From Acidobacteriota bacterium (GTDB lineage Bacteria > Acidobacteriota > Thermoanaerobaculia > Gp7-AA8): 64,000 nucleotides of DNA. Location of the stretch: NCBI GenBank assembly GCA_021781455.1, contig JAJXWV010000041.1, positions 75,484 through 139,483 of the forward strand. The letters are read 5' to 3'. This document shows, in pieces, positions 9,726-50,289 of the stretch. Each line of letters begins with the position of its first letter. The stretch's first letter is position 1. A program made the translations under genes and the position numbers. The notes under the pieces are model-generated. The model was not told the origin of the DNA. It searched no databases and saw only the letters and a list, made by a program, of their open reading frames with translations.

Positions 9726-9752
9726 CGCCCTCCCGAATGTTCAACATCTTTC

Positions 9753-13009: not shown

Positions 13010-13158
13010 CGGCGGCCTGACGGCCGCCGCTAAATTGTGTCGGCGGCTACGCCGCCTGTTCTCGCCCTGACCGAAGAGTCGGCCACGGTCAAAGCCGGCG
13101 AAGCCGGCGACATCATTTAGCGGCGGCCGTCAGGCCGCCGGCGGCCGTCAGGCTGCCG
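13010..13158. repeat. Family I hairpin element, locus 1. Two inverted copies of AATTTAGCGGCGGCCGTCAGGCCGCCG about 80 bp apart, plus a third partial copy.
   Basis: cggcggcctgacggccgccgctaaatt at 13010-13036 and atttagcggcggccgtcaggccgccg at 13115-13140. Each unit contains a GGCGGCC-loop-GGCCGCC hairpin. The region lies between the divergent murJ and FAD-oxidoreductase genes. Confidence 0.75.
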
Positions 13159-13371
13159 AACCGGGAACACGCATTACATGATTGAGGGCGCGTAGCGTCC
13201 GACAGCATTTCGGTTGCGGGCAAGCGCAGCGAGCGGTCTCTGTCTCTCCGTGTTCTCTGTGGTGAATTCTTGCCAGCCTCTCCGGACGACACGCACCTGC
13301 CCCCCGCGCTCTGCTCCGCGCTCTCATTGCGGAATTCGCTCCCGCACCGACGCGATACCATAGCTCTGCCC

Positions 13372-17876: not shown

Positions 17877-17965
17877 AATGGGACCGATGGGACCACTGGG
17901 ACCGATGGGACGCGTGGGACAGTCTCATAGGTCCCATTCGTCCCATCGGTCCCATTCGTCCCATT
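17877..17965. repeat. Family C inverted nonamer array (GATGGGACC units x5, spacer, GTCCCATYG units x4)
   Basis: atgggaccgatgggaccactgggaccgatgggacgcgtgggacag tctcatag gtcccattcgtcccatcggtcccattcgtcccatt. Confidence 0.85.
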
Positions 17966-18029: not shown

Positions 18030-20417
18030 TTGATCGGATTGCACGTGTCCACCCCCCGAACCAGCCTCACCACGCTCGAGCTCGATCGCGTGCTGACCCT
18101 CGTGGCTCTCGAGGCGAAGAGCGAGCCCGGCAAGCGGGCCGTCCTGCGGAAACAGCCCTTGCCCACGATCGAAGCATGCGAGCGCGCTCAGGTCGAGCTG
18201 GCCGAAATGGTGCGCTTCTACCTCACCGACGGTCTGCTGCCCCTCGCCGGCCTCACCGAGGTCGAACCGCTTTTTGTCCGGGACACGGTGCTCGAGCTCG
18301 AAGACTCGTGGCAGATCGTGCGCGCCATCCGCGCCACCCAGGCCATTCGCGAGACGTTTCTCCGCGTCGACACCTACCCCCGCCTCACTGCGATTGCGCG
18401 CACCCTCCCCGACCTCGGCGGACTGATCACGAAGACCAACAAGTACTTCACGCGCGACGGCAAGCTGCGCGAGGACGCATCGCCGGAGCTGCGCTCGATC
18501 CGCACTCGCGTCCACCAGAAGCGTTCTGCGATCCAGCGCGTCCTCAACGACGTCATGAACCGCAACGCCGACGCCGTTCAGGAGCCGCTCGTCGTCCAGC
18601 GCGGCGACCGCTACTGCATTCCGGTGCGGAGTGACCACCGGAACTCCGTGCCCGGCATCCTCCACGAGCGATCGGGCTCGGGCGCTTCGTTTTTCATCGA
18701 GCCGATGGCCAGCGTCGAGCTGAACAACGATCTCGCCGAGCTCCTCCTGCAGGAACGCGAGGAGATCGGGCGGATCACGCGGGTGATCGCGCAAATGCTG
18801 CTCGACGAGGCTCAGTCGATCAGCGCGGCCGTCGAATCTGCCGCCGATTTCGACTGCCTGCAGGCTTGCGCGATCTTCCACCGCACCGTCGAGGCCACGC
18901 GTCCCGCGTTCAGCGCCGACCGCCGGCTCCACGTCATCGATGGCCGGCACCCGCTCATCGACGAGCGGCTGATGGACGCGCGCGTCACCGCGTTGGGTGA
19001 AGAGGCGAGCGACCAGAAAGTCGTTCCCATCACGATCAGCCTCGACGCTGATGCGCCTGCCCTCGTCGTCAGCGGACCGAATGCCGGCGGCAAGACCGTG
19101 GCGTTGAAAACGGCCGGACTGCTCGTAGCCATGGCCATGAGCGGCCTTCCCGTCCCGGCATCGGACGGAACGGTCATTCCGATCGTCGACGCCCTGCACG
19201 TCCTGATCGGAGACGACCAGAGCGTGCTCGAGCACCTCTCCACGTTTTCGGCCTATCTGCTGCGCCTGAAACGCGTGCTCGATCGGGCCACGGACCGTTC
19301 GCTGGTCCTTCTCGACGAGCTGGGCTCGGGAACCGATCCCGAGGAAGGCGCGGCGCTCGCGGCCGCGGTCATCGAGCATCTCCTCGCTGCGGGAGCGCTG
19401 CTGATCGCCACGACGCATCTCTCGGCGCTGAAGACTTTCGCCGTCAACGACGGGCGCATCGTGAACGCCTCGATGGAATTCGACTCAGCAACCGGCCATC
19501 CGACTTATCACCTGATCTCCGGGATTCCCGGACGCAGCCGGGCCATCGACGTGGCCCAGATGATCGGCCTTCCCTCCTCGGTCATCGCCAGCGCGCGCGA
19601 GCGCCTCGGCGACCGGTATGGCGAGACCGATCAGCTCCTGGCACAGCTGCAGGCCCGAATGTCCGAGGTGTTGCGGCAGTCGGACGCGCTGGCCGATTCC
19701 AGGCGTGCCCTCGAATCCGAGCAGGTGCGTCTCGCCGCCGCCACCGAAAAACTCGAAAAGGAACGGATGCGCGCCGGCACGGCTTTTCGGGAAGAGCTGG
19801 AGAGATTGCGCGACGACGTCGGCAGGCAGGTCAGCAACGAGCTGCGGCAGCTTCGCGAGCTCGATCGCAATGCGCGCGCGGCCGTGAACACCGCGGAAGT
19901 GCTCAAGAACGTCACGCAGCCGGTCGACAAGGCCATGCAGTTTCTGCCTGCCGAGCAGCGCGAGGTCCGCGCCGGCGAGCGCGCGGAGCATCGCAGATTC
20001 AAGGTGACCGGCGAGATTGTGTCGATCGACGGCAGCAAGGCCGTGCTCAAGGTCAATGGCCGCAAGATGACGGTCGAGCTGCGCGACCTGGTGCCGCTGG
20101 CTTCCGCTCCGCAGCCGAAGAAGCAGTCGAAATACGCGGCCGCCCAGCCCTCTCACGGTGACGACGCCGTGGAGATCTCGGCGGAGCTCAACCTGATTGG
20201 TCAGCGCGTCGAGGAAGCGCTGGACGAGTCCGATCGGTTCCTCGACCGCTCCCTGCTGGAAGGGCGCCAGGCCGTGCGCATCATCCACGGCTTCGGCACC
20301 GGGAGGCTCCGCTCCGCGATTCGCGAGCACCTGCGCAAGCATCCAGCGGTGAAGTCGTGGAGACCTGGAGATGACAACGAAGGAGGAGACGGTGCGACGG
20401 TCGCCGTTCTCGGCTGA
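18030..20417 (+). CDS. mutS2: Endonuclease MutS2 (MutS domain plus C-terminal Smr domain)
   Basis: Walker A VVSGPNAGGKTVALKT, Walker B LVLLDELGSGTDPEEG, C-terminal Smr domain (LNLIGQRVEEALDESDRFLDRSLLEGRQAVRIIHGFGTGRLRSAI). It lies between rpsU and dnaG. Confidence 0.9.
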   Translation: MIGLHVSTPRTSLTTLELDRVLTLVALEAKSEPGKRAVLRKQPLPTIEACERAQVELAEMVRFYLTDGLLPLAGLTEVEPLFVRDTVLELEDSWQIVRAIRATQAIRETFLRVDTYPRLTAIARTLPDLGGLITKTNKYFTRDGKLREDASPELRSIRTRVHQKRSAIQRVLNDVMNRNADAVQEPLVVQRGDRYCIPVRSDHRNSVPGILHERSGSGASFFIEPMASVELNNDLAELLLQEREEIGRITRVIAQMLLDEAQSISAAVESAADFDCLQACAIFHRTVEATRPAFSADRRLHVIDGRHPLIDERLMDARVTALGEEASDQKVVPITISLDADAPALVVSGPNAGGKTVALKTAGLLVAMAMSGLPVPASDGTVIPIVDALHVLIGDDQSVLEHLSTFSAYLLRLKRVLDRATDRSLVLLDELGSGTDPEEGAALAAAVIEHLLAAGALLIATTHLSALKTFAVNDGRIVNASMEFDSATGHPTYHLISGIPGRSRAIDVAQMIGLPSSVIASARERLGDRYGETDQLLAQLQARMSEVLRQSDALADSRRALESEQVRLAAATEKLEKERMRAGTAFREELERLRDDVGRQVSNELRQLRELDRNARAAVNTAEVLKNVTQPVDKAMQFLPAEQREVRAGERAEHRRFKVTGEIVSIDGSKAVLKVNGRKMTVELRDLVPLASAPQPKKQSKYAAAQPSHGDDAVEISAELNLIGQRVEEALDESDRFLDRSLLEGRQAVRIIHGFGTGRLRSAIREHLRKHPAVKSWRPGDDNEGGDGATVAVLG

Positions 20418-20443
20418 GACCCGCTCAGGGCTTGGTTCCGCGG

Positions 20444-20511
20444 TTCCGCGGTTCCGCGGTTGCGCAGTGGACGTCGACCGCGGAACCGCGCAACCGCGCA
20501 ACCGCGCAACC
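20444..20511. repeat. Family B inverted octamer array (GGTTSCGC x4, spacer, GCGSAACC x4), copy B1
   Basis: ggttccgcggttccgcggttccgcggttgcgc agtggacgtcgacc gcggaaccgcgcaaccgcgcaaccgcgcaacc. It lies immediately 5' of the dnaG start. The ORF-track N-terminal extension RNRATAQPRNHA is this repeat translated. Confidence 0.85.
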
Positions 20512-20516
20512 ATGCC

Positions 20517-22256
20517 ATGGCTCTAGTCGATCTCAACGACGCCGTGATCTCCCAGGTCCGCCAGGCGGCGGATCTCGTGGAGTTCGTCTCGCAGGTGACG
20601 CCGCTGAAACTGGCCGGCAAGAGTCACAAGGGGCTCTGCCCGTTTCATCGCGAGAAGACGCCGTCCTTCCATGTCGACCGGGCCAAGGGCTTGTTCTACT
20701 GCTTCGGATGCGGAGTCGGTGGAGACGTCTTCAAGTTCCTCACGCTGACGGAGCGCTTCACGTTTCCGGAGGCCGTCGAGCACGTGGCCGCGCGGGTCGG
20801 GATCGAGCTCCCACGCAAGCGGAGGACGGCTCGGGAGAGCGACAAGGACGACCTGCTGGAAGTCCTGGACGAGGCTTCCGAGGCCTTCCATCAGGCGCTG
20901 CAGTGGACGCCTAACCCGGCCGACGATTACCTGCACAACCGGGGCGTTCCCGAGGCCATCGTAAAGAAGTACGGCTTCGGCTACGCGCCCGATTCGTGGG
21001 ATTACATCTTCACGAGGCTTGCGCGAAAGCACGGCGAGAAGAAACTCGAGGCATCGGGACTGATTCAGCCGCGCAAGAGCGGAGGTGGTTTCTACGATCG
21101 CTTCCGCAACCGGCTCATCATCCCGATCCACTCGGAGACGGGAGCCCTCGTCGGTTTCGGCGGCCGGACGCTCGACGGCAGCGATCCGAAGTACCTGAAC
21201 TCGCCGGAGTCGGAGATCTTCAACAAGTCGCGGCTGCTGTACAACCTGCACCGCTCGAAGGACGCCATGCGGCGCATCGATCGCGCGATCCTGGTGGAGG
21301 GGTACTTCGATGCCATCGCCATCGACCACGCGGGAGTGCCGGGCGTGGTGGCCTCGATGGGGACGTCGCTGACGACGGGCCAGGCCTCCCTGATGCGCCG
21401 CTACGCGCGGCGTGTGGTGATCGCGTACGACGGAGACGACGCCGGGAAGAACGCCACGCTCCGCGCGGCTCCGATCCTGCTCGCCGCCGGCATCGACGTG
21501 CAGGCGCTCGATCTGATGGGCGAAAAGGATCCCGACTCCCTGGTTCAGAAGTTTGGCGTGGACCGCTTTCTGGAGGTCCTCGGAAACGCCACCGACATCT
21601 TCCAGTTCGCGTTGAAGCTGTGGGCGGCCGACCCGGGGCAGCTGACGGGCCGCGAGAAGTCGGAGCGCGTGGAGATGTTCGTGCCACTGCTCAGCGCAGT
21701 AGCCGATCCGGTGGTCCGCAACGACGCCGCCCAGCGGATCGCCGATGCTTTCCGGCTGGAGTTCGACACGGTGTGGTCGCGGGTCCGCGGCAGGTCGCAA
21801 ACGGTGGTGACGGAACGGCAGGCGTCAGCGCCCGGATCGACGGCGGAAAAGATGCTGCTGACGGCGGCCATTCAGGGACGATTGCCGCAGGAGGTGGCCG
21901 GGCGGCTTCGCGAGGAGTACTTCGGGGATCCGGCGTGCCAAACGCTCTTTTCTATCATAAAAACCGGGCTGCTGTCAGGCGATCCTCTTGATTTCGCAGC
22001 GATAGCGACCCATCTTAGGGGCGAAGCCGAGCTTACCCTGCTCTCCGAGCTGACGCTCAGCGAGGATGTCGACGACGCGACCCTTCAAAAGATCGACGAG
22101 AACCTGCGGCCCATGGAGCGGCACTTTCTCGAGCGGAGACAGCTCGAAATCCAAAGAGACATGGTGGAGGCACAAAAGAGAGGTGATGCGCAGCGGCTGG
22201 ACGAGCTGGCCGCCGAGAAGCACGACCTGTCCCGTATCTCCAGCAGGTTGAAATAA
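20517..22256 (+). CDS. dnaG: DNA primase
   Basis: Zinc-binding domain CPFHREKTPSFHVDRAKGLFYCFGCGVGGDVFKF, a TOPRIM domain (EGYFDAIA...DGDDAGKNAT) and a C-terminal helical domain. Confidence 0.9.
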   Translation: MALVDLNDAVISQVRQAADLVEFVSQVTPLKLAGKSHKGLCPFHREKTPSFHVDRAKGLFYCFGCGVGGDVFKFLTLTERFTFPEAVEHVAARVGIELPRKRRTARESDKDDLLEVLDEASEAFHQALQWTPNPADDYLHNRGVPEAIVKKYGFGYAPDSWDYIFTRLARKHGEKKLEASGLIQPRKSGGGFYDRFRNRLIIPIHSETGALVGFGGRTLDGSDPKYLNSPESEIFNKSRLLYNLHRSKDAMRRIDRAILVEGYFDAIAIDHAGVPGVVASMGTSLTTGQASLMRRYARRVVIAYDGDDAGKNATLRAAPILLAAGIDVQALDLMGEKDPDSLVQKFGVDRFLEVLGNATDIFQFALKLWAADPGQLTGREKSERVEMFVPLLSAVADPVVRNDAAQRIADAFRLEFDTVWSRVRGRSQTVVTERQASAPGSTAEKMLLTAAIQGRLPQEVAGRLREEYFGDPACQTLFSIIKTGLLSGDPLDFAAIATHLRGEAELTLLSELTLSEDVDDATLQKIDENLRPMERHFLERRQLEIQRDMVEAQKRGDAQRLDELAAEKHDLSRISSRLK

Positions 22257-22424
22257 TTATTGTCCTCTGATCATTACCAGACTGTCCTCTGCGGACGAAC
22301 CTTTGACGAAGCTGCCGACCAAATCCGGTGATTGCGTCAAGGTCTCGATGCAGACCGTACGTTAGCGTTCGAACCGTAGTGCCGAGGGCGACCTGAGAGC
22401 TGCCCGGAGAGGAGCGTCAACGCC

Positions 22425-24257
22425 ATGACATCACGCCTGCGCACTTCGAACCTCGAACAAGAGACCAACTTTGATGAGGGGGTTGGAGATTTGAGCGTCG
22501 AAGAGAAGTACGCTGAGGTGAAGCAGCTCATTATCATCGGGAAGGAAAAGGGCTTTCTCCTCTACGACGAGATCTACGAGGTCCTCCCGGAAGAAATCAC
22601 GAGCCTCCCCGAAGAGCTCGACGAGATCTACATCCGCTTCAACGATCTGGGCATCGACGTCGTCGAAGATGCCGAGAAACCGCTCCAGACGTCCACCAAG
22701 GGCATCGTCACCATCGACGGGACCATCGAAGAAAAGGAGATGGACCAGCGCGAGGAGGTCCAGCAGGACATCATCGCGGCCTCCAGTGGCATCGTCGACA
22801 AGACCAATGACCCCGTGCGCATGTACCTGCGCGAGATGGGGACGGTCAAGCTCCTCGATCGGCAGGGCGAAGTCGACATCGCCAAGCGCATCGAGAAGGG
22901 CGAACGCCGGGTCTTCAAGGCGCTCTCCGCGAACCGCATCATCCGCGAAGAGATCCTGAAGATCTACGACGCCGCCAAGAAGGACACGCGCGTCATCAAG
23001 GAGACCATCGACCTGGCCATGCCGGACGATGACGGCAGCGTGGCCGTGGAGATGGAGAACGGCGAGCCGAAAATGCCCGCCGCCACCGTCAACAAGATCA
23101 ACGAGATCCTGCTCATCTTCGAGAAGATCGCCAAGCTCGACAAGAAGATCAAGGACGCCAACGGCAAGATCGCCGATCCGAAGAAGCTCAGCCAGCGCGC
23201 CCTGGCCGCCGCGCACAAGAACATCGAGAAGCTGGAGATGGATCTGGCCAACGAACTGCGCCAGATCGACTTCACGCCGCAGACGCGCAATCGGATGATC
23301 AACAAGCTCAAGGACATCGACAACGAGCTGTCGATGGCCTCGTCCATGATCCGCAAGGACGAGCAGGCCTTCAAGCGCGAGAAGGACAAGACCCGCCGCG
23401 ACTTCTACCGCCGCCGCCTGCAGAAGTACCAGGAAAAGCTCGTGGAGCTGGAAGCCTTCTACGGCACCACCCACGACGAGCTGAAGAAGACCATTCGCGA
23501 GATCCGCTCAGGCGAAGAGGAAGCCGATCAGGCCAAACAGGAGCTGATCGTGGCCAACCTCCGCCTGGTGGTCTCCATCGCCAAGAAGTACACCAACCGC
23601 GGGCTGCAGTTCCTCGACCTCATCCAGGAAGGCAACATCGGCCTGATGAAGGCCGTCGAGAAATTCGAGTACCGCCGCGGCTACAAGTTCTCCACCTACG
23701 CCACGTGGTGGATCCGCCAGGCCATCACCCGCGCCATCGCCGATCAGGCCCGCACCATTCGCATCCCGGTGCACATGATCGAGACCATCAACAAGCTCAC
23801 CCGCACTTCCCGCGCCCTGGTGCAGGAGCTCGGCCGCGAGCCGCAGGCCGAAGAGATCGCCCAGCGCATGGACATGCCGGTGGCCAAGGTTCGCAAGATC
23901 ATGAAGATCGCCCAGGAGCCGATCTCGCTCGAGACGCCCATCGGCGAAGAGGAAGATTCGCATCTCGGGGACTTCATCGAGGATCGCGCCGTGGTCTCCC
24001 CCATCGACCACGTCATCGTCTCGAACCTCAAGGAGCAGACCAACAAGGTCCTGCGCACCCTCACCCCACGCGAGGAGCAGGTGCTGAAGATGCGCTTCGG
24101 CGTCGGCGACGGTGCCGAGCACACCCTCGAGGAGGTGGGACGCTCGTTCAACGTCACCCGTGAGCGCATCCGCCAGATCGAGTCGAAGGCGCTCCGCAAG
24201 CTCCGCCATCCGTCGCGCTCGAAGAAGCTTCGTCCCTTCCTCGACGCCACCTTCTGA
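22425..24257 (+). CDS. rpoD: RNA polymerase sigma factor RpoD (sigma-70)
   Basis: Region 1.1 acidic N-terminus, region 2 ([43 protein letters not shown]), region 4 ([28 protein letters not shown]). Confidence 0.95.
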
Positions 24258-24391
24258 TTCTCACGATCCGAAAACGAAACAGGGCGGCCTCCGGGCCGCC
24301 CTTGTTATTGCCTGCCGTTCCCAGCGTTCCTCCAACGATCGCGAAGGAAATCGCCGGCCACACGTCTTTGCATTCGCATCGGGACACGACC

Positions 24392-25150
24392 ATGCGTGAC
24401 CGGCCGCGCTTGCTTCATGATCGTTTTTGTTTACGATGCCCGCAACCAATACCCGTTCTCGAGGCGACTTCCTTGAAACTGCTCGCGAGTGCGCTGTTTT
24501 CTCTCCTGGCTTTGCCTCTCTTCGCGGCCCAGCCCTATCACCTTCAGCTCGAGGCCAACCCGGCCGCTCCGTTCCCCTTCCTCAGCCGGTTCGGGACCGT
24601 GACCATCGACGTCTACGGCGGCGGCGTCCGCGCCGAAACGATCTGGCTGAACGGGTTCAGCCGCAACGGCGGCCAGGCTGTGACGGTCGAGAACCCTCTC
24701 GGCCGGATGTACACCGACCTTCCGCTGCCGGAGATCGCGAAACTGGTGCGAAAGCTCGGCGGCTCGTCGCTGGGGCCGCTCTCCGGCCCTCCGGAGAGGG
24801 TCACCGCCGCAGTCGCCGGTAAAGTTCGTGGCATCGATGCAGAGCGATACCGCCTCGTCTACGGTCCGCAGGCGTGGATCGATGTCTGGACGACGAAAGC
24901 GGTTCCTGACAACCCGCAGTTCCGCGCCATCGCCAACGAGTTCGTGGCCGGCGTTTCGCCCCCCGCCGCGGAGATCGCGCGCAGGCTTCCCGGCACACCG
25001 ATCTACGTCGAGTTGAACTTCCGCCGTTTCCACAAGCTGCCTCTGCTGCGGCTCAAGTCGCTGTCGTTCGAGAATAAGGGCGAGTCCGATGCTCTCAGCG
25101 TCGGGATGCTCTATTTCAAGGCGCTGATGCTCGATGCGCTCTGGAAGTAG
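24392..25150 (+). CDS. Hypothetical exported protein
   Basis: An internal hydrophobic stretch LKLLASALFSLLALPLFAAQP resembles a signal peptide. An alternative TTG start at 24473 would put it at the N-terminus. Confidence 0.4.
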   Translation: MRDRPRLLHDRFCLRCPQPIPVLEATSLKLLASALFSLLALPLFAAQPYHLQLEANPAAPFPFLSRFGTVTIDVYGGGVRAETIWLNGFSRNGGQAVTVENPLGRMYTDLPLPEIAKLVRKLGGSSLGPLSGPPERVTAAVAGKVRGIDAERYRLVYGPQAWIDVWTTKAVPDNPQFRAIANEFVAGVSPPAAEIARRLPGTPIYVELNFRRFHKLPLLRLKSLSFENKGESDALSVGMLYFKALMLDALWK

Positions 25151-25603
25151 CCTTTCGCCTTTGTGCTCTATATGTTACGGCGAGTGCGGCCGCAGCCCCA
25201 GTTCCCTTCCTGACGGGCACGCCGATTGAAATAGTAAATCGCGAGCGTTTTTTCAGTTGTGATTTCGAGAGAAAAACGTATCATATTAACCATGCATGAA
25301 TGGGGAGGCGTCCGGCGGGCTGCAATAATCGCCCGGCGCAGCTGTTTCCATCCGTGTACGCTTCCTGTGCGGCATACGCCGCATGATCTTTAAAAATACG
25401 ACGAGTTCCCGCTCCTCCCCTCTGCCTCGGGGCGAGATGGAGCGGTCGATCCGGTCCGCGACTTCGGCGAGGTGGGTCATGACCATGGACGTGACGCTTG
25501 TCGCGGGTCCGCCGGAAATTCATGGGGGAGGAGGTACAAAAATTCGCATGGATTGTTCTAATACACCTAAGGGGGCTACGACCTCGTAGCTTCCACCCCG
25601 AAA

Positions 25604-25631
25604 GGGCGCCCGTAACACGGCGCCCTTTTTC
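25604..25631 (+). terminator. Rho-independent terminator at the end of an AT-rich non-coding stretch
   Basis: gggcgcc cgtaacac ggcgccc ttttt. Upstream at about 25255-25285 there is a promoter-like TTGTGA-N17-TATCAT. Confidence 0.55.
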
Positions 25632-25752
25632 AATTTCTGAGAGTTTCCGGCGGCGCCTGACGGCGCCGCTTTCTGTTTGGCCGGAGTGCGGACGTCCCGT
25701 CCGCACCCGCGGGACGTCTCGTCCCGCGGTCCTGGCGCGCCATCGACGATGC

Positions 25753-26019
25753 CTAGTCGAGCCGCGGAATGACCACTCGCCCGCCCTCGAGCGGAAGGGA
25801 CGGGCTGGCCGGCCGGAGAATCGCCCTGAGGCGCTCCTGGAGGACTTCCACCGAGGTGAACTCGGAATCGAGCAGCTTGTGGAGCGCCTCGACGCCGGCA
25901 GCACGGATCCGGCTCGGCTTGCGCGTCAGGCAGGCGTTGGTCTTACAGCGCGGCGTGCAGTACTTGCGCGTCGATCGCGTCTTCGGAAAGAGACTGCCGC
26001 AATACGAGCAGGTGCCCAT
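25753..26019 (-). CDS. Small zinc-ribbon protein (88 aa)
   Basis: MGTCSYCGSLFPKTRSTRKYCTPRCKTNACL, an N-terminal C4 ribbon followed by a basic/helical tail. Three 16-bp palindromes lie directly upstream. Confidence 0.45.
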   Translation of the reverse strand: MGTCSYCGSLFPKTRSTRKYCTPRCKTNACLTRKPSRIRAAGVEALHKLLDSEFTSVEVLQERLRAILRPASPSLPLEGGRVVIPRLD

Positions 26020-26043
26020 CCCGTCCTCCCCCCTCCCACGGAC

Positions 26044-26142
26044 TACCGTTGATCAACGATTGGCGGCGGAGCGCCGTGGCCAACGGCCGGTTCTCACGAG
26101 CCGGCCGGTAACCGTTGATTAACGGTTCAACCGTTGATCGGC
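26044..26142. promoter_or_regulatory. Three copies of a palindromic operator-like motif, ACCGTTGATYAACGGT
   Basis: taccgttgatcaacgat (26044-26060), aaccgttgattaacggtt (26110-26127), aaccgttgatcgg (26129-26141). They lie 25-120 bp upstream of the zinc-ribbon gene start. Confidence 0.55.
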
Positions 26143-26586
26143 GACAAAAGTACGCCGGCCGGTCGCGATCGTCAACTAGTGGACGAAGGGGCGGCGTTCG
26201 CAGATTCGCATATTCGCCGCCGCAGTTTTACCCCATGGGCAACAGGCAGGGATCGTACGTTTCTGACAACCACCCGCCAATTTGCGTTGAACGCATGCCG
26301 CAGATTGTTTTCCTCACGCTCTTCCTCGGCCCGACCTCGGGATCAGGGTTGATCGCTGCTGGGCGGCCGGGCCCTGGTGACGCTGGATCGTCCTCCGTGG
26401 TCAGCGCAGGTCGACTTCGGTCCTGAACTGACGCCGCAGGCTCTCGTCGTGATCGGTTTCGACGCGAACGGTGTCGAGATCGCACGCGCGTCGCAGAGCC
26501 TCAATCTTCCGCGCCCGGTCGCAGAAGTCGATTGAGCCGAATTCGTACGATCACTCTTGCTGATCCGTGCCACTTCCGCGTGAGTG

Positions 26587-28899
26587 TTACCGTCGCACCG
26601 GCCGGGATCGGGGCACGGCGTCGAGGTCGCGCAGGAATGCCCGCGGCGCGGCGCCGTACGGGCGCTCGATGCCGAGGCGAACGTACGCCAGGTACGCATG
26701 ATCGCCGGCGATGCAGAGAGAATCGCGGGACAGGACGATGGCGTTGTCGGCTCGTCCATCGAAGCGCAGCGCAATTGTGTCCGACTGCACAATCGACGCT
26801 TGCGCGTCGAGAGTGGCGCGATGGATCTCGATTCCGGTCGTCGTCATGACCGGCCAAGCAATCGTGTACGCCGATGCATTCCAGGCGATCGGAACGACGC
26901 CGGGAGCCACGCCGAAGAAATTCGCCGAGCCGGTCCAGATCGCGTGTCCGTTCTGCTGCGGCGTGCCGTCGAGCAGCTCGCCATTCCGCGAAACAGCGCT
27001 CGAGCGGACCGAGTAGCGTGCGTCCTGCAGCGGTTGGCTCATCCACGTGACGATGGCGCCGTCGCCGTTCGCAGCGATCGAAATGCTCTCCTGATCATCG
27101 GGATCGACCGCGATCGCGATTCCGCCCGGCGCGTCGAGCGGCCGGCCGTCCGCGGCGAATCGCCCGGCGTAGACGTCGCCTTGACTTGCGAGGGGACACT
27201 CGAACGGACAGTGGAGAATTCCGGGCTCGAGCTGCACCCAGCCGATCCAGTACATTGAGCCGTCGAACGCGATCGCGGGCTGCTGATGCCGCTGCGGACC
27301 GACTGTGATCGTGGAGGCATCATCGAGCGTTCCGTTCGCGCGCACGCGCCTGATCCGGATCTGTCCCGAACCGTCGGCAGCCTGCCAGGCCACGACCCAG
27401 TCGCGTCCGTCGCTCGCGACAACCGGGCTGTCCAAGCTCGCGGTCGTCTGCGCCCCCTCGTCGATGACGATGTCCGCCGTATCCAGCGGCACCGCGGATG
27501 TGGAGAAGCGGCGCGCTTTGACGCGGCAATTCTGCTGAGCGCCTTCTTCCCAGACGACGAGGTGCGCTATGCCATTGAATGCCGTCGATACCTGCACCGC
27601 GGTCGAGTTCCACGAGGTCGGGCGCAGGCCGGTCGCGATCCGAATGCCGTTGCCGGTCGCCGGGACGCCCTCCGCCGTCAGGTGGCCGACATACAGATCA
27701 GAATTGGCGAATGGACCATAGGCCGTACTGAATGGACGGTACTCGGACCACGCCGCGAACCATCCGTCAGGATCGCGCGAGATCGCTGGCGCGGTCTGGT
27801 ACGAGGCGCCGCTTGCCGCCGCAATGGCGGTGCCGGTTGTCAAATCGTCGTGCAGCAGTGCGACTCGAAAAATCCGGTCGGTCGACGTGACCCATGTGAC
27901 GAGCCGCGCGTCAGGCGAGATGCCGAACCCGGAGACGTGATCGGCGATGACCACAGGCGCTCCCACGGCAACCAGATTGCTGTCGAGTCTCTGCGCGGTA
28001 ACCGTGGCCTTGCTGTCGACCGAGAACACGGATGCCTCGCCATCTGAAGAGACGAGAGCCGAGACCGGCGGAACCGTAACTCTCGCCATAATCGTCCCGT
28101 CGCGCGCGATGCGGACGAGTTGTGGAGAGCCAGGCGGCCACCCAACCGCTGCTGACGCGATGATCCACGATACGCCGTCGAAAACGATAAGGTTGTTTGT
28201 GGTGCTCGACGCCGCGATCGTGATGCCAAGATTGCTGCCGTCCGGCCGCACGATGGCGCCGAGGGTCGATTGTGTGTCACCGTTCCAGACGACGAGAAAA
28301 TTGGTGCCGTCCGTCGACACTGCCACGCCGTCGCCGATCCACCCCTGCGTCCTTGCGATCGGCACGTCGGGGACGATGACGTTCAGATCGTCGTCGAGAA
28401 TCAGCGCGCTGATACTGTGGTAGAGGCTGTACGCAATCAGCAGCTGGCCGCCATTCCAGGCGATCGCAACACGGTCCTCGGTGCCACTCGCGAGCGGCGG
28501 CAGATAGTCGACGATTGCTCTCCTTTCGGCAACATTTCCCTGCGGCGTGACACGTGCGACCCAGATCTGTGAATCCAACCGGTCGTTCCAGACGACGACA
28601 TAGTCTCTGCCGTTCCACGCAACCGCCGGAGGAACATCGCTGTAGGCCGTCGTGATCGTCAGCGGAATGGGATCGAGGACCTCACCGCCGCCCGAGACGC
28701 GCGTCGCCACGATGGCGTAGCCGCGCGAAACGACGAGGTAGTCCTGCCCGTCGGTGGCGATGGCCGGAGTCAGGCCGGCTGCGACCGGCGCCGGCGCCAC
28801 AGTGGAAATCGGCCATTCGGTGCCCGCCGCGCTCATCGCGGTCGCGATCAGCGCAAAGAGAATCGCCCATCGGATGACCACACGTGGATTGTGGCTCAT
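26587..28899 (-). CDS. Secreted repeat protein, probably a multi-bladed beta-propeller (about 13 repeats of ~55 aa)
   Basis: Signal peptide MSHNPRVVIRWAILFALIATAMSAAG. The body is recurring modules with the motif DG/NG-x-D/N-[YFW]-x-VV-W (DGQDYLVVS, NGRDYVVVWND, DGTNFLVVWNGD, DGRDWVVAWQAADG, FNGIAHLVVWEEG, NGDGAIVTWMS ...). Confidence 0.6.
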   Translation of the reverse strand: MSHNPRVVIRWAILFALIATAMSAAGTEWPISTVAPAPVAAGLTPAIATDGQDYLVVSRGYAIVATRVSGGGEVLDPIPLTITTAYSDVPPAVAWNGRDYVVVWNDRLDSQIWVARVTPQGNVAERRAIVDYLPPLASGTEDRVAIAWNGGQLLIAYSLYHSISALILDDDLNVIVPDVPIARTQGWIGDGVAVSTDGTNFLVVWNGDTQSTLGAIVRPDGSNLGITIAASSTTNNLIVFDGVSWIIASAAVGWPPGSPQLVRIARDGTIMARVTVPPVSALVSSDGEASVFSVDSKATVTAQRLDSNLVAVGAPVVIADHVSGFGISPDARLVTWVTSTDRIFRVALLHDDLTTGTAIAAASGASYQTAPAISRDPDGWFAAWSEYRPFSTAYGPFANSDLYVGHLTAEGVPATGNGIRIATGLRPTSWNSTAVQVSTAFNGIAHLVVWEEGAQQNCRVKARRFSTSAVPLDTADIVIDEGAQTTASLDSPVVASDGRDWVVAWQAADGSGQIRIRRVRANGTLDDASTITVGPQRHQQPAIAFDGSMYWIGWVQLEPGILHCPFECPLASQGDVYAGRFAADGRPLDAPGGIAIAVDPDDQESISIAANGDGAIVTWMSQPLQDARYSVRSSAVSRNGELLDGTPQQNGHAIWTGSANFFGVAPGVVPIAWNASAYTIAWPVMTTTGIEIHRATLDAQASIVQSDTIALRFDGRADNAIVLSRDSLCIAGDHAYLAYVRLGIERPYGAAPRAFLRDLDAVPRSRPVRR

Positions 28900-29073
28900 G
28901 CCTCCGATTTCTACCGCATTCCGGAACGGCGCAGGTGCGAACCGCGTCACGAGACGTCGTGGTTGTCCGGGACGCCGCACACGTGTGCCTCCAAAGCGGT
29001 CCCCGCACCGGTCATCGTGGCCGCGTACTCATCGCTTGTGGTCCCGCTGGGGTTGATCCTGTCCGTGAATTCA

Positions 29074-29149
29074 CGTCGGGAATCTCCGCCTTTTGCGTTG
29101 CGCTATGCTGACGTTCATTGCCTCGGTGGCGGACGCTGCGAACTTACAG
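29074..29149 (+). pseudogene. Degenerate direct copy of the tRNA-Leu upstream region plus tRNA positions 1 to about 38 (att-like repeat or pseudo-tRNA)
   Basis: cgtcgggaatctccgcc-ttttgcgttgcgctatgctgacgttcattgcctcggtggcgga-cgctgcgaacttacag aligns with 33395-33498 (cgacgggaatctccgcgaactctctcaggcttttgcgttgcgttatcctgacgtccgttgcctcggtggcggaatggcagacgctgcggacttaaaatcc). It has one 13-nt and one 9-nt indel and is otherwise about 85% identical. Confidence 0.7.
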
Positions 29150-29229
29150 TAAAAAGCACAGCGCCGTCACGACATGACAGCAAACGCATCCGCTGGTAAT
29201 GGGCGACGCCGTCTTTCCCGTCCCGTCCA

Positions 29230-31620
29230 TCAGTGGAAAACGACTTCGTTTGTTGCGCCGACTCGCAGGTGCGGCAGGCCAGCGACGAGATACGGGACGG
29301 TAAACACGTCTGTGCCTGTGGCAAAGTCGTGCGGAAGGGACGCCGGATCCGGGCCCAGGATTACATCGACGATATCCGTTGTGTAGATGTCGTACACCTC
29401 AACAGCCGCCCGACCAATAAGCATGAACGGAGCACGCCGGAAACGCTGGTGCTGCGCAAACGCTGATTGTGGAATTCTCACACCGTTCACGACAAGCCCG
29501 ATAATCGCTGTCGATTGCTTTAGCGACGGCGCTACAGCGATTCGGATTGCTCTCGTCGCGCTGAGCCCTGGTGGAGCGATTTCAGTCGGGAGCCCGCCTG
29601 GATCAGCAGACACGGCCGGTATTACATAAAGTGGTGATGCACCGACAAGCACGGTGTACTCTGGAGCGCCATGGTTAAGATGAAACCGGATATCGCCGTT
29701 CTCATCGACAGCCGCGTGCTCGGTGACTGTTCCATCGGCCAGGCACCAGTATGCGAGACTGTACTTGCCAGTCCCAACATGGGCGTGGCGTTCGGCCGCA
29801 GGCCGCAAGGCGATGCTCACCTCCTGCACATCCTTAAGGATTTCGACCGTGTCGCACGCGGACTTATAGTTAGCGGCCTCCGCACAGATACGAGTAGTTT
29901 TCCCGGACGGCAGCGAGTCTACGACTACCCGTCCGTTCGAGTCCCGCTCTCCAGGCATCATGTATAGACCTTGGGTGTCACCCTTGTCTCGGAACACGGT
30001 CGCAATCGCTCTGGCGTCCGGGAGCGGTGATCCGGTTACTGCATCTGTGACCGTCACTTCGACCTTGTTGATTGGAACGTCGATATCGTAACCAGCCCCC
30101 GCCGCGACTTCACTTTCAGGAACGTGAATGTACTCGAACGAGTGATCGCAAGCCTTGACCTGAATGTTGGTCTTGCCGGGTGATGCAGTTAGGTAAGCGC
30201 CGTACTCGCCACTCGGTGTGGAAACGGCTGAACCCGTGCGGAATAAGAGTTGTGCGACGACCGGCTTTCCACCCCGCGTTATGCGGCCGGCGACGTAGAA
30301 ACCTCGTCCTGACATCGTCAGCCTGATTGATTCGCCAGGCGCAGTCTCGACGGTGTCCATAGCCGCGGTGTGCGAGCCACGTGAAACGGTGACTAGGTAA
30401 GCGCCGGGCGTCAGTCCAGCAAATTGCGTGACCGCGCTCGAAGCAGTAGCCCAGTCACCTCGCTTCTCCTGAATGACCGTGCACCGCTTCGGTGTATCCA
30501 CGGTCAGCCTGATCGAATGCAGGTATTTTCCGCAGTCGTATACGGCAATGTTCGGCCGCTCCGCCTGATCAGCGTTTGCCCGAAGAGGGTCGGTTACGGC
30601 ATCGCATGAGACTCGATTCGGTTGCGACCACCCAGCTATGTCCGTCACTGTCACGTCTAACGCCGAGCCAACGTGTACAGGTATCAGGTCCGAAATCACT
30701 AGTCCGCCCGGGGTAATACTGACCGGAACCTGCTGCGCAAGCCACCGAGCGCCGCCGATCAGAAGTGTGGCATCCCCGGGTGGAACGTCATCGAATACAA
30801 AGATGTTGTTTAGTAGATTCTGAGAATACATCGGCGCAAGAATTGGCGCGTGTGGACGACCGCGGCCATCCCTGAGTGTCACGTCGGGTACGGCTTGCTT
30901 GCCTAAGAGTGCCAAGAATTGCTGTGAGTAGAGCTGCGCGCACACAACTCCGCCTTCGGTGGTCGCCACCAGTCCTTGTCCTGTGAACGGGTCCACCGGG
31001 CGAAGCGCCGTCATGACGTACTGGGTGTTATTGATGGCGCGTACGAGCAGAGTCTTGCCCGCGCCGACGGTCGCCAAGCTTCCGATCCTCGTCGGCTTTC
31101 CTCCGTGAACGATGACGGGCAATAACGGTGTGTCTGCGGGCACCAGGATTGACGTCGCACCGCGGGGTACTGGAATCACAGCTCCGCGGTTCTTAGCCGT
31201 CTCCCCTTCAAGTATGGCCACGTCATCAGCGGTGGCCAAATCCTTGTTGACCACCGACAGGTCGAGAGTTGCAGCGGCCGCGAGATCGAGGCTGACTCCT
31301 TTCACAGCTTGCGCGTCGGTTGTACCGGTGATGAAACCGTGATTAGCACTGATCAACCCTCGCGGGTGACGCGCGTAAACACCGAAACCGTTAGGCGGAA
31401 TCTCAATGAGCTTATCTGCAGGCAGACAACGCACCTGACCAGCAGTAGCGAAAACGCTGAATGGGTTCGCCAGGTCCATGGGGTAAAAACAGACCTCGGA
31501 ACCCGGTAAACGTTCTCCGGCGTAGCGGATGCGAAAATCGACGCGCCCGTGGACCACGAGAGCGACGAGGGTAATCGCCACGGACATTGCGGATGCTTTG
31601 AGAGCCGTTCGACAGGTCAT
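29230..31620 (-). CDS. Large secreted hypothetical protein (796 aa)
   Basis: N-terminal signal anchor (AMSVAITLVALVVHG). No catalytic motif recognised. Noticeably lower GC than flanking housekeeping genes. Confidence 0.6.
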   Translation of the reverse strand: MTCRTALKASAMSVAITLVALVVHGRVDFRIRYAGERLPGSEVCFYPMDLANPFSVFATAGQVRCLPADKLIEIPPNGFGVYARHPRGLISANHGFITGTTDAQAVKGVSLDLAAAATLDLSVVNKDLATADDVAILEGETAKNRGAVIPVPRGATSILVPADTPLLPVIVHGGKPTRIGSLATVGAGKTLLVRAINNTQYVMTALRPVDPFTGQGLVATTEGGVVCAQLYSQQFLALLGKQAVPDVTLRDGRGRPHAPILAPMYSQNLLNNIFVFDDVPPGDATLLIGGARWLAQQVPVSITPGGLVISDLIPVHVGSALDVTVTDIAGWSQPNRVSCDAVTDPLRANADQAERPNIAVYDCGKYLHSIRLTVDTPKRCTVIQEKRGDWATASSAVTQFAGLTPGAYLVTVSRGSHTAAMDTVETAPGESIRLTMSGRGFYVAGRITRGGKPVVAQLLFRTGSAVSTPSGEYGAYLTASPGKTNIQVKACDHSFEYIHVPESEVAAGAGYDIDVPINKVEVTVTDAVTGSPLPDARAIATVFRDKGDTQGLYMMPGERDSNGRVVVDSLPSGKTTRICAEAANYKSACDTVEILKDVQEVSIALRPAAERHAHVGTGKYSLAYWCLADGTVTEHAAVDENGDIRFHLNHGAPEYTVLVGASPLYVIPAVSADPGGLPTEIAPPGLSATRAIRIAVAPSLKQSTAIIGLVVNGVRIPQSAFAQHQRFRRAPFMLIGRAAVEVYDIYTTDIVDVILGPDPASLPHDFATGTDVFTVPYLVAGLPHLRVGATNEVVFH

Positions 31621-31629
31621 CGGCAGATC

Positions 31630-32136
31630 TCAGCAGTTCTGGCAGAAGCACGCCCCGTGGATCTCGATTCCGTCCCTGCAATAGTTCAGATAGTACACTG
31701 ACTGGCACGAGCGGTTGTCGGGATAGGGCAACGATGGGTTGCACAGCCAAAACGCGTCGCAGGTAGTCGGAAAGCAGTTCGACAGCGGCGTGGCGGAGTC
31801 GGATTGTGGAGTTTGGTTCGCTGCAATGGTCGACCAGACTATATCAGTTTTGGCGGTCTCCGTGACTTTCGTTGAATGCCGCAGCCATACACTAGTGGCC
31901 TGTATTGGTTGAATTGGTACCAGTGGCGCCGGGATCGGCGACGTGAGCGAGGCGCGCCGACGCAGGCATAGCGGTGACTATGCTGAGGAGGCGCAACGAA
32001 GCTCACGGCGTCGAGACCAAGCCAGGTGGTACCAATTCAGCCGATACAGGCCACTAGGTGCGCCAGTCATGGTTGGCGTGACAATCAGAAGTGATATTGA
32101 TATTGCGAGGAGAACCATGATCTGCGATCTGTTCAT
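31630..32136 (-). pseudogene. Secreted Cys-rich protein gene interrupted by a single in-frame TAG (signal peptide 52 codons, TAG, then 115 codons with 10 Cys)
   Basis: RBS aaggaggg then ATG. MNRSQIMVLLAISISLLIVTPTMTGAPSGLYRLNWYHLAWSRRRELRCASSA - TAG (31980..31978) - SPLCLRRR...NCFPTTCDAFWLCNPSLPYPDNRSCQSVYYLNYCRDGIEIHGACFCQNC-stop, all in one frame. Coordinates and codon counts are consistent (507 nt). Confidence 0.5.
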
Positions 32137-32574
32137 GTTTCCCTCCTTGGTATGAGCTAACTGGTTGATGAGCGCTGTACCCCGGGCTGAACACAGTGAC
32201 GGAAGGAGTGCATGCCTGGCTAACGCCCGGCCGCACGCCCACAACATGGGATCTCCACCATAGGAGGATCGTGATACGCCGTACCGGTGGGCGTGAGGTC
32301 GCATGATGATCGCTTGTAGGACTCTCGCGTGGTATCGCCTGGTCGTTACTGTAAGGCATTCGGTGAGGACGCGGCGTGACGTGCTCGGCTGCTTCGGGAG
32401 ATCGGGATAGAGTTCGAAAATCCAACCCGTGAAACGGTTGTTGCCGATGAATTCTCCAACCGCGGACAGCGCCTGAAGCGTCGTCCGTTCGGTCGGAATC
32501 CCTGCCGCCACTCCGAATGACCTGGTGCCGCCGTCCCGCGTTGCAGAAGTCGACAACGCGCTGGGAATCTCGCC

Positions 32575-32964
32575 GTGGCGAACCTCCCGGTCCTCGACCT
32601 GAGCAAGTACCTCCTGACCGTCGAAAACGAGGGTGAGCTCTTCGAGTACGTTCTCCGCATCGCGAAGCATGAGGTGGCTCGTGATGGCGCTGTCGATGTC
32701 GGTGATGCGGAGATGCTCGACATTTCGCGATGGCTGCATCGACAAATTCGCCTCATCGAAAACGCGGAGAAGCCGCTTTCATTCAAACGGCTAAAGTCGA
32801 TCCTCTCGCGCTTCGAATCCACGTTCGCGCACCCGCACAAAGGCAATCGAATCGACATCTACCGCCACGGCAGATGGACGCAGGTTCATTACCGTGGCGA
32901 TGGCAGCGAGGTTCAGCGGAATACGATTCGAAAGATTCGGCAGGATCTCAAGCCTGAGCGATGA
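32575..32964 (+). CDS. Hypothetical protein. The C-terminal ~60 aa loosely resemble HicA-family mRNA-interferase toxins.
   Basis: KRLKSILSRFESTFAHPHKGNRIDIYRHG...GSEVQRNTIRKIRQDL resembles the HicA pattern K..I..L...G......GSH..F.HP.G....V..H.....GT...I.KQ.GL. The true start may be Met at 32713. No HicB-like partner is seen. Confidence 0.3.
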   Translation: MANLPVLDLSKYLLTVENEGELFEYVLRIAKHEVARDGAVDVGDAEMLDISRWLHRQIRLIENAEKPLSFKRLKSILSRFESTFAHPHKGNRIDIYRHGRWTQVHYRGDGSEVQRNTIRKIRQDLKPER

Positions 32965-33459
32965 CGATGGCAACGATTCGATGATCTTCTACGACGCTCG
33001 TGACCGAGTACCCGAATTCGTGCACAGATATCGCCGCACGCTCGACCGTCTCGCAAAGCTGTGAACGAGCAACATGAGCAACGAAGAAATCGTGAATGGC
33101 CCGCTTGCTCGTAGGAACGTCGGCGATTCGCTGCTGGCCGCGTGACCTGAAGGCGCTTTGAGCGGCGCCGGTCCGCCCTGCGACGGCGAATCTGTCATGC
33201 CGATTCTGGGTGAACTGGACCCTTCGCGAATGCTACATGCATTTTCGAGGCCGCCATGCCAATCGCGAGTCCTTGAAAAGCTGGGCATACCCACCTCGTC
33301 ACCGCGTTGTTATTGCGTCGAGTCGAGCGTCTGTACGAACACTGTCCGTGAATTGTTCTTGCTCTCGGCGAAACTCAGCATGAACAGACGCTACTCGCGA
33401 CGACGGGAATCTCCGCGAACTCTCTCAGGCTTTTGCGTTGCGTTATCCTGACGTCCGTT

Positions 33460-33547
33460 GCCTCGGTGGCGGAATGGCAGACGCTGCGGACTTAAAATCC
33501 GCTGCTCCGTGAGGGGCGTGCCGGTTCGAGTCCGGCCCGAGGCACCA
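33460..33547 (+). tRNA. tRNA-Leu (anticodon UAA), with long variable arm
   Basis: gcctcgg tg gcgg aatggcag acgc t gcgga cttaaaa tccgc + 17-nt variable arm + gccgg ttcgagt ccggc ccgaggc a cca. Cloverleaf folds with T-loop TTCGAGT and encoded CCA. Confidence 0.85.
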
Positions 33548-33551
33548 GACG

Positions 33552-33650
33552 AGCGGGAAGCGGGCAGCGGGTAGGACGACGGTGCTCGCCACCATCCGCG
33601 CCTCCTACCCGCTACTCGCTACCCGCTACCCGCTACCCGCTTCGTTATCA
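33552..33650. repeat. Family G inverted heptamer array (GCGGGWA x3, spacer, CGCTACC x5)
   Basis: gcgggaagcgggcagcgggtagga cgacggtgctcgccaccatccgcgcc tcctacccgctactcgctacccgctacccgctacccgc. It directly follows the tRNA-Leu 3' end. A half-copy occurs at 42906-42930. Confidence 0.8.
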
Positions 33651-33686: not shown

Positions 33687-34862
<1,176 letters not shown>

Positions 34863-40764: not shown

Positions 40765-40867
40765 GAGTGCTGAGTACTGAGTGCTGAGTACTGAGTGGTG
40801 GAACCGGAAGCAGGCCTTTGTTGTGCTCGTGACACTCAGTACTCAGCACTCAGTACTCAGCACTCAG
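40765..40867. repeat. Family A inverted heptamer array, copy A4
   Basis: gagtgctgagtactgagtgctgagtactgagtg + 37-nt spacer + ctcagtactcagcactcagtactcagcactcag. It starts 4 nt after the kinase stop. Confidence 0.85.
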
Positions 40868-42832: not shown

Positions 42833-42922
42833 TGCCGTTCCTCAACGGAAGGCGAACGTCGCGCATTTCAACATGGAAAGCGGACGCGCTTGTCCTTCGA
42901 CTCCCGTCCTACCCGCTGCCCG

Positions 42923-43210
42923 CTACTCGCCACGCGCTTGTCTGAGCAGCACCACCGTCGCTCCCCAACCGCCGCCGGTCGGATCCGCGTCGTGGAATTC
43001 TTCGACGAAGTCGAGCTTCCCCAGCAGTGACTGCACGTTTGCGCGCTGCACGCCGATGCCGCGGCCATGGATCAGACGCACCTGCCGGAAGCCGCGCGCC
43101 CGCGCTTCGCGCAGGTACTCCTCGACGACGTCGCGAATTTCGCCTGGCCTAAACGGATGCAGGTCGAGCGTGTCCTCGATCGGGATCTCGACCGGCTCGT
43201 CGTCGTTCAT
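42923..43210 (-). CDS. Smr-domain protein (small MutS-related nuclease domain, about 95 aa)
   Basis: MNDDEPVEIPIEDTLDLHPFRPGEIRDVVEEYLREARARGFRQVRLIHGRGIGVQRANVQSLLGKLDFV, the Smr fold with a conserved LDLHG-like motif. The ORF-track N-terminal extension is discarded. Confidence 0.7.
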   Translation of the reverse strand: MNDDEPVEIPIEDTLDLHPFRPGEIRDVVEEYLREARARGFRQVRLIHGRGIGVQRANVQSLLGKLDFVEEFHDADPTGGGWGATVVLLRQARGE

Positions 43211-45813: not shown

Positions 45814-45937
45814 AGTGCTGATTCCTGAGTGCTGAGTACCGAGTTCCGCCGTGCGATCGAGCGCCTCGTTCCGCGTCTCGTACCTGTCGCCCCAATCGCC
45901 GACTCAGTACTCAGCACTCAGTACTCAGTACTAAGAT
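45814..45937. repeat. Family A inverted heptamer array, copy A5 (57-nt spacer)
   Basis: agtgctgattcctgagtgctgagtaccgag ... ctcagtactcagcactcagtactcagtact. Confidence 0.8.
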
Positions 45938-50250: not shown

Positions 50251-50289
50251 TTCGATTGCATATGCTTCTTGTCCTGCAGGAGTGAGCAA

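Follow-up and report, generated by a model that had tools for sequence, protein, structure and literature searches.

What could have placed a broken copy of a tRNA gene 4.3 kb upstream of the intact gene, in the same orientation, with DNA of low guanine plus cytosine (GC) content in between? This arrangement is found in a metagenome-assembled genome (MAG) of an Acidobacteriota bacterium of the class Thermoanaerobaculia, in a stretch of 64,000 nucleotides (nt) that was analysed as a whole and is here called the window. The tRNA is tRNA-Leu(UAA). An initial annotation, made from the sequence alone, had read the arrangement as a decayed, integrase-mediated insertion into the tRNA gene. That reading is supported by the absence of the DNA from 80 related loci, by the same geometry in three relatives (L020, L037 and L079), and by the integrase gene of the last of these. 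The low-GC DNA, referred to as module B, is bounded by a direct repeat and is foreign in composition, and it is probably a decayed island that owes its origin to an integrase acting at tRNA-Leu. The repeat and the DNA beside it are laid out as follows.

33460-33547, + strand: intact tRNA-Leu(UAA) gene, the putative integration target and regenerated gene (ARAGORN; Rfam tRNA, 57.3 bits)
33342-33494, + strand: right repeat, consisting of the 118 nt upstream of the tRNA and tRNA nt 1-35 (aligned to 29059-29146)
29059-29146, + strand: left repeat, a degenerate copy of this arm and of tRNA nt 1-35, a displaced and non-functional 5' fragment (gapped local alignment)
29147-33341: module B, low-GC inserted DNA (58.2% GC; no protein or DNA match in the 80 loci)
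26186-29058: module A, accessory DNA of near-native composition (64.7% GC; GC at third codon positions, GC3, 0.78; no homologue in the 80 loci)

The repeat is real. In the gapped local alignment of 29059-29146 with 33342-33494, 81 of the 88 aligned bases are identical (92%), and the score of 104 compares with 18.7 +/- 3.0 (maximum 32) in 300 shuffles. Its left end is at position -118 relative to the tRNA and its right end within the anticodon, at tRNA nt 35, which makes it slightly longer than the copy described in the initial annotation. Three deletions, of 44, 13 and 8 nt, have shortened the left repeat, and the D-loop sequence GAATGGCA was lost with the 8-nt deletion. Neither ARAGORN nor Rfam calls a tRNA near 29.07 kb, and the only tRNA-Leu(UAA) is the intact gene at 33460-33547, 4.3 kb to the right of the fragment as had been noted. 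Since 65 nt and the anticodon stem are missing from it, the left repeat is unlikely to be a usable attachment (att) site. Nothing suggests that the island is mobile at the present day.

The GC content of 29147-33342 is 58.2%, compared with 64.0% elsewhere in the window. This is the lowest-GC 4.2-kb stretch of the window, 3.7 standard deviations under the mean, and the interval with the most deviant tetranucleotide content. The drop in GC had been pointed out before, with values (52-58% against 67%) that slightly exaggerate it. The GC3 of the largest gene of module B, encoding a protein of 796 amino acids (aa), is 0.62 against 0.78-0.90 in neighbouring genes. For comparison, 80 loci from Thermoanaerobaculia or otherwise unclassified Acidobacteriota MAGs were collected by a scan with the acyl-CoA dehydrogenase encoded downstream of the tRNA, one genome being taken per species; the dehydrogenase proteins are 77-87% identical in all of them. 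No open reading frame (ORF) or DNA segment from 26.12-33.45 kb of the window matches any of these loci. The variable block, at about 26186-33341, is therefore larger than the interval first proposed for the insertion. It comprises module A and module B, 7.2 kb in length against 4.2 kb for module B, and the degenerate tRNA copy lies exactly at the junction of the two.

Each of the loci was searched for partial copies of its own tRNA-Leu. Three further cases were found, in L020, L037 and L079, and all have the polarity of the window, with the 5' fragment displaced to the upstream side. The duplication that was first read as the footprint of integration recurs in three relatives; the usual footprint is a 3' fragment, with 5' fragments in the minority. 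In L020 a copy of tRNA nt 1-42 sits 4.9 kb upstream of the intact gene, has the clade-typical promoter region (cgtcaacgtgttacctt) in front of it, and differs from the clade tRNAs at one position. In the intact L020 tRNA four positions of the 5' half depart from the clade sequence; the 3' half agrees with it throughout and runs straight into the native downstream flank. The regenerated tRNA is therefore a hybrid, of a foreign 5' half and a native 3' half. The insert of L020 includes a TIR-WD40 gene. In L037, nt -1 to 42 are copied 2.6 kb upstream, where they adjoin the native divergent dehydrogenase/tRNA promoter. The L079 fragment, nt 1-38, is 67 nt from the dehydrogenase gene and beside the native promoter. 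Directly beyond it are a gene for a 370-aa tyrosine integrase (PF00589, E 1.9e-20), a small ribbon-helix-helix-like ORF and an HTH_17 excisionase-like gene; the contig, JBBRTB010000008.1, begins within the element, and there is no intact tRNA on the piece examined. The insertions of L020, L037 and L079 into the same tRNA are independent events.

As a separate observation, the hybrid tRNA-Leu of L020 (9858-9946) has an A6.C67 mismatch in its acceptor stem, where the foreign 5' strand GCCCCAG faces the native 3' strand CCGGGGC. The displaced native 5' half pairs at this position.

The DNA in front of the intact tRNAs also links these cases. The upstream regions in L020 and L037 are homologous (z 10.4), and each of these arms is followed by a divergent ORF related to phage terminase small subunits. 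The ORF in L037 is a terminase-small-subunit homologue, with a 70%-identical relative directly preceding the TerL gene in L089 and 30% identity (E 2e-16) to the ORF before TerL in L084; that of L020 is a degenerate homologue. Over its last 90 nt the right arm of the window is collinear with the L037 arm, ungapped, with 52% identity, where the other loci give 26 +/- 6% and the best of them 39%. Both have the 12-mer CATGAACAGACG at -81. By blastn the tRNA upstream arms had no match in any of the loci, and the relationship with L037 is seen only when the two are compared at the same offset.

The cargo of module B consists of the following features, read from left to right.

29152-29182, - strand: terminator-like hairpin and T-tail of the 796-aa gene (consensus scan)
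29230-31620, - strand: intact gene for a near-orphan secreted protein of 796 aa (ORF; 785 aa in public records)
31630-32136, - strand: interrupted gene for a small secreted Cys-rich protein, the upstream partner of the 796-aa gene (translation)
31892-32057: near-perfect hairpin of 166 nt inside the Cys-rich gene (inverted repeat, folding energy)
32480-33064, + strand: Fic/Doc-family pseudogene of a 357-aa protein (tblastn with the L084 homologue)

The 796-aa ORF and the Cys-rich gene with its internal TAG are present as initially annotated. The 796-aa protein has a hydrophobic N-terminus and a weak match to CarboxypepD_reg (25.8 bits, under the Pfam cut-off of 32.3). Among 5.8 billion clustered proteins only the protein itself and two distant homologues (27% and 26% identity) were found, and an AlphaFold2 model from the resulting 3-sequence alignment was unusable (mean pLDDT, the predicted local distance difference test score, 36.5). 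The ORF at 31630-32136 encodes a signal peptide and a C-terminal part with 8 Cys. Both distant homologues likewise have a small Cys-rich ORF with a signal peptide directly upstream, and the two genes therefore form a conserved module, in which a small secreted Cys-rich gene is followed by a gene for a CarboxypepD_reg-like protein of 750-800 aa. Only three such pairs occur among the 5.8 billion proteins (window 29230-32136; L082 174-2842; L083 2010-4540), and in the window the first gene of the pair is broken.

The gene is broken by the 166-nt hairpin (-120.9 kcal/mol, z -11.3), an in-frame insertion within which the internal TAG lies. Its outer arms are 31 nt long with 2 mismatches. No clear target duplication is visible, and a search of the window, 89 loci and viral contigs gave this one copy only. 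A second assembly of the same population (L081), which covers 19230-32030 of the window, ends inside the right arm of the hairpin. This could be an insertion similar to a miniature inverted-repeat transposable element or a polymorphic site.

Beyond the Cys-rich gene, a spacer of about 300 nt leads to an ORF at 32575-32964 with a frameshifted tail to 33064, after which about 280 nt are non-coding. In the initial annotation all genes of the interval were placed on the minus strand and this ORF was called HicA-like; it lies on the + strand and has no Pfam or NCBIfam HicA match, with only a weak match to phrog_8887 'toxin' (E 0.019). By tblastn, residues 25-55, 197-320 and 322-357 of the L084 homologue match 32480-32572, 32575-32949 and 32954-33061, in two frames. 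The ORF with its tail (32575-33064) is 51-69% identical to the C-terminal 160 residues of this 357-aa protein (L084 9488-10561), of which a shorter called form, P0006, has a PF02661 (Fic) match marked as weak. Judged by this alignment, the ORF is a Fic/Doc pseudogene, and a likely mis-annotation is thereby corrected. Its lesions are an in-frame stop upstream, a deletion of 141 codons and one frameshift near the 3' end. Homologue residues 56-196, which include the Fic motif HAFHNGNKR, have no counterpart in the window; the window ORF has no Pfam match to a Fic domain, and the motif HxFx(D/N)GNKR is gone, leaving a residual stretch SRQRAGNLA.

The intact homologue in L084 is in a prophage-like region (2561-14624) with a LexA-like repressor, Mom, TerS/TerL, HU, Fic/Doc and an integrase, and is 9 kb from the tRNA-Leu(UAA) at 847-934. 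A tRNA-Cys also adjoins this region, and no att-like repeats of tRNA-Leu or tRNA-Cys were found around it within 20 kb. The phage link of the window is indirect, through the Fic/Doc homologue and the shared arm.

That no integrase is left in the island, as was first reported, was borne out by all searches. A six-frame Pfam scan of 31600-33460 found no integrase domain and the other ORFs are without one; tblastn with the L079 integrase found nothing in the 64-kb window and with the L084 integrase nothing in 26.0-33.7 kb. No remnants of integrase, excisionase, terminase or other phage genes were found in the island by six-frame Pfam or by tblastn with proteins from L079, L084, L037 and L020, and there were no PHROG, Pfam or tblastn matches to terminase, integrase, repressor or other genes of L084, L037 and L079. 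Viral contigs had no matches to the L079 integrase, to the Fic/Doc protein or to the hairpin arm.

The following history would account for this locus. Module B and the right arm (33342-33494) would be the remnant of a prophage-like integrative element, which a tyrosine integrase recombined with the anticodon stem-loop of the chromosomal tRNA-Leu(UAA) gene. Elements that target tRNA genes mostly bring the 3' part of the gene. The attP of this type of element would comprise a promoter and tRNA nt 1 to about 43, the right repeat being the element-borne arm that supplied the promoter and 5' half. Integration would have left the element upstream of a regenerated hybrid tRNA, and pushed the former promoter and 5' half to its far end, now 29059-29146. 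The integrase and excisionase end, which in L079 is beside the fragment, would then have been lost by a deletion from the anticodon loop of the fragment to just past the terminator of the 796-aa gene. Homology of the window fragment stops at nt 35, against 38-43 in the relatives, and the terminator-like hairpin begins 6 nt past the end of the left repeat. This fits a deletion from the anticodon loop into the element, and suggests that it took out what once lay between the fragment and the 796-aa gene. The surviving cargo would be the secreted two-gene module, of the small Cys-rich and 796-aa proteins, and the dead Fic/Doc toxin gene.

The window fragment appears to have an element-type arm in front of it, where the fragments of the three relatives have the native promoter. 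This arm would then come from an earlier element of a related kind, and the locus would be a decayed tandem array. Two successive integrations of related elements, module A being the rest of the first and its arm having been displaced by the second, module B, are the simplest account of an element-type arm on both copies. That module A is the older remnant and module B the newer member has about an even chance of being correct.

Several observations weigh against this history. The window has no detectable remnant of a phage gene, be it for an integrase, an excisionase, a terminase or another product, and the mechanism in this genome therefore rests on analogy. No close relative was found with an empty site for module B alone. 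If two elements had integrated in tandem, a third piece of tRNA-Leu, with the native promoter, would be expected near 26186, where module A begins; in 26020-26590 the best candidate is not significant, 253 of 500 shuffles being as good, and module A itself has near-native composition and no mobile-element gene. The likeness of the window and L037 arms is modest (local alignment z 5.1), and the native upstream region of L002 is about equal (z 4.9). The junction of module B with the tRNA (32.03-33.46 kb) is present in one assembly only, since L081 stops at 32030. Lastly, both repeat copies share their upstream region and the clade-specific acceptor sequence GCCTCGG, unlike L020, L037 and L079, and a duplication within the lineage would give the same pattern.

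In such a duplication the tRNA-Leu promoter and 5' part, or a whole second gene, would have been copied locally and one copy would have decayed, with module B arriving otherwise and no integrase acting at the tRNA, for example by illegitimate recombination or because the locus is a general insertion hotspot. The 118 nt upstream and the GCCTCGG acceptor common to both copies are as expected from this, as is a window without an integrase. The promoter-proximal 25 nt resemble the native promoter of L002 (z 4.9), and accessory genes occur beside the tRNA with no fragment in L001, L013, L045, L053, L056, L064 and L067. Left unexplained is the end of the copy in the anticodon loop. The right arm of the window matches the L037 element arm at the same offset, and the combination of fragment and island is exactly that of the three relatives, in which site-specific recombination is evident from hybrid tRNAs, from native promoters beside the fragments and from an integrase. 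A local duplication is, in light of this, an unlikely origin for the arrangement, although it is the best placed of the alternatives.

Still less probable is that RecA inserted a circular DNA from a closely related strain, carrying the tRNA-Leu promoter region and module B, by a Campbell-type crossover, after which the left copy decayed. The homology of more than 150 nt, which includes non-coding upstream DNA that varies between species, and the same-lineage appearance of both copies would suit this origin. Such a crossover gives no reason for the left copy to stop inside the anticodon loop, or for the copies in the three other genomes to end at nt 38-43. The composition of module B is also foreign, and no relatives of its genes occur in the clade, which makes a sister strain an unlikely donor.

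The remotest of the alternatives is an assembly artefact, in which the low-GC block was wrongly joined at the tRNA-like repeats or the 166-nt hairpin: the end of L081 inside the hairpin at 32030, and a 32.03-33.46 kb junction seen in one assembly, would allow it, but L081 is 99.99% identical over 19230-32030 and thereby confirms the junction of module A, left repeat and module B, the left repeat with its three deletions is too degenerate to have misled an assembler at k=141, the arms of the hairpin are imperfect, which those of fold-back artefacts are not, and the small gene stays in frame through the hairpin, which stands between the signal peptide and the Cys-rich part, two parts that the homologues have as well.

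A decayed integrase-mediated island has counterparts among known systems. In the Islander collection a 5' fragment was found in 159 islands and a 3' fragment in 3760 (3919 total), 2083 islands have an anticodon-centred site, and 125 tandem arrays are recorded; a 5' fragment must lie upstream of the tRNA gene to be accepted (Hudson, Lau & Williams 2015, PMC4383910). The locus is like the anticodon-centred 5'-fragment subclass of these islands: an intact tRNA and its matching end fragment point the same way, an island of foreign composition separates them, and the 5' fragment is upstream and ends at the anticodon stem-loop. Tandem arrays at one tRNA gene are likewise known. The geometry is the mirror image of the usual 3' replacement and is a recognised minority configuration. 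The fragment has the same orientation as the gene, is an end fragment on the correct side, and bounds DNA of a length within 2-200 kb that is absent from related genomes. There is no tyrosine integrase gene in the island, and the integrase filter of Islander would therefore reject it. For this reason it is best described as a decayed remnant of an Islander-type island. It differs from these islands in being very small, at 4.2 kb, and in that the repeat also spans 118 nt upstream of the tRNA, which is attributed to two related tandem elements.

Integrase-less degenerate islands bounded by att sites also form part of the literature on accretion of integrative and conjugative elements, as remnants like the cis-mobilizable elements (CIMEs). 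CIME-like remnants share with the island the att-derived flanking repeats, the lack of an own recombinase, and the proposed tandem position with another remnant at the same target. A difference is that the left repeat, without its anticodon stem and 65 nt shorter, is unlikely to serve as an att site.

A further comparison is with tRNA-dependent lysogeny in actinobacteriophages, which integrate in a host tRNA gene and must secure the supply of that tRNA. These phages carry a complete tRNA of their own and the host gene is not rebuilt (Guerrero-Bustamante & Hatfull 2024, PMC10865867). In the present clade a hybrid host gene is restored, and in L020 the foreign 5' half leads directly into the native 3' half and the flank beyond it. 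Fic/Doc toxins as prophage cargo are matched in the window by a homologue of a PF02661 protein from a prophage-like region, which differs from them in being a pseudogene with a stop and a frameshift from which 141 codons with HxFx(D/N)GNKR are gone.

The position of the island within the chromosome can be seen from the genes on either side of it and from module A.

25753-26019, - strand: Zn-ribbon gene, conserved core flank outside the island (tblastn matches in 52 of the 80 loci)
26587-28899, - strand: gene for a secreted repeat protein of 770 aa, or 797 aa from an upstream GTG (ORF)
33687-34862, + strand: acyl-CoA dehydrogenase gene, conserved core flank (Pfam Acyl-CoA_dh domains)

The usual gene order is mutS2, dnaG, rpoD, a 225-aa gene and an 88-aa Zn-ribbon gene on the minus strand, then 100-250 nt, tRNA-Leu(UAA), 20-200 nt and the dehydrogenase gene, and the tRNA is syntenic with the dehydrogenase gene in about 73 of the 80 relatives. 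It had been proposed to look for relatives in which tRNA-Leu abuts the gene at 26587-28899, described as a beta-propeller gene; it abuts the Zn-ribbon gene instead. Both of these genes had been suggested as members of the accessory neighbourhood. The repeat-protein gene is accessory, and the Zn-ribbon gene, in the same place in 52 of the 80, belongs to the core. The 770-aa protein is part of a large repeat family, with multi-stretch matches to 2817 cluster representatives and no close orthologue, and a search of Joint Genome Institute metagenomes for an empty site or a sister strain found only a 25% relative of it. Paralogy between the 796-aa and 797-aa proteins was considered, and their comparison showed none.

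Accessory genes without a tRNA fragment are present between the Zn-ribbon gene and tRNA-Leu in L001, L053, L056, L064 and L067, and between tRNA-Leu and the dehydrogenase gene in L013, L045, L005/L016 and L008. The locus is therefore a general insertion hotspot and not an att site alone. Accessory genes of the relatives at this locus include those for a 545-aa secreted protein, a 699-aa protein and a 710-aa repeat protein, and ABC-transporter-like ORFs.

On the Zn-ribbon side the conserved DNA stops at about 26124-26185 and includes the motifs CCGTTGATCAACGG and GTCAACnnGTTGAC. Upstream of the Zn-ribbon gene the palindrome CCGTTGATCAACGG occurs more than once, accompanied by a motif like GTCAACnnGTTGAC (26047-26059, 26112-26125, 26131-26141 and 26170-26184). 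Relatives such as L022 and L080 keep both in this position, and the motifs look like operator sites. A candidate copy of the dehydrogenase promoter at 26203-26236, which would imply a larger duplication, was not significant (local score 23 against 19.2 +/- 2.6 in shuffles).

The orientation of tRNA-Leu(UAA) in L001-L080 is about half each way, with its position between the Zn-ribbon and dehydrogenase genes kept. In a rough dehydrogenase tree even neighbouring genomes can differ in this, and each orientation has its own compact promoter arrangement.

Intergenic hairpins made of tandem 7-9-nt units and their complements (CTGAGTN/ACTCAGN, ATGGGACCG/GTCCCAT, GGTTCCGC/ACCGCGCA and AGCGGGN/CTACCCG) are numerous in the window, at 102-179, 3413-3444, 3876-3935, 17878-17965, 20434-20511, 33552-33643, 40765-40867, 42905-42924, 45814-45932, 49647-49767, 50220-50251, 52902-52937 and 56671-56706. 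Beside the tRNA-Leu of relatives there are hairpins of this kind whose units bear little resemblance to those above (GAAAATT, GAGGACT, GGGCAGT and others). Together they seem to form a class of repeat-built elements, spread across the clade, that resemble terminators or repetitive extragenic palindromic sequences.

The locus provides a cleanly resolved example, from a poorly studied soil phylum, of the rarer geometry of integration into tRNA genes, in which promoter and front half of the gene come from the mobile element. Such islands are recognisable long after the integrase is lost, and 26.19-33.34 kb of the window can be marked as accessory DNA. No new mechanism is opened by this, the event being of an ordinary kind in an uncommon orientation. 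The points of some interest are the element-borne promoter for a host tRNA-Leu(UAA), the orientation flips across the clade, and the very rare secreted two-gene cargo, which is flagged as travelling on such elements. A more speculative suggestion, for which the odds are poor, is that a family of temperate elements in Thermoanaerobaculia brings transcription of the host tRNA-Leu(UAA) under its own control, with promoter and 5' half replaced at each integration. If true, this would generate hybrid tRNAs, sometimes with acceptor-stem mismatches as in L020, and decay of an element would not end the dependence of tRNA-Leu expression on element DNA. Recurrent replacement might then underlie the frequent orientation flips of this tRNA.

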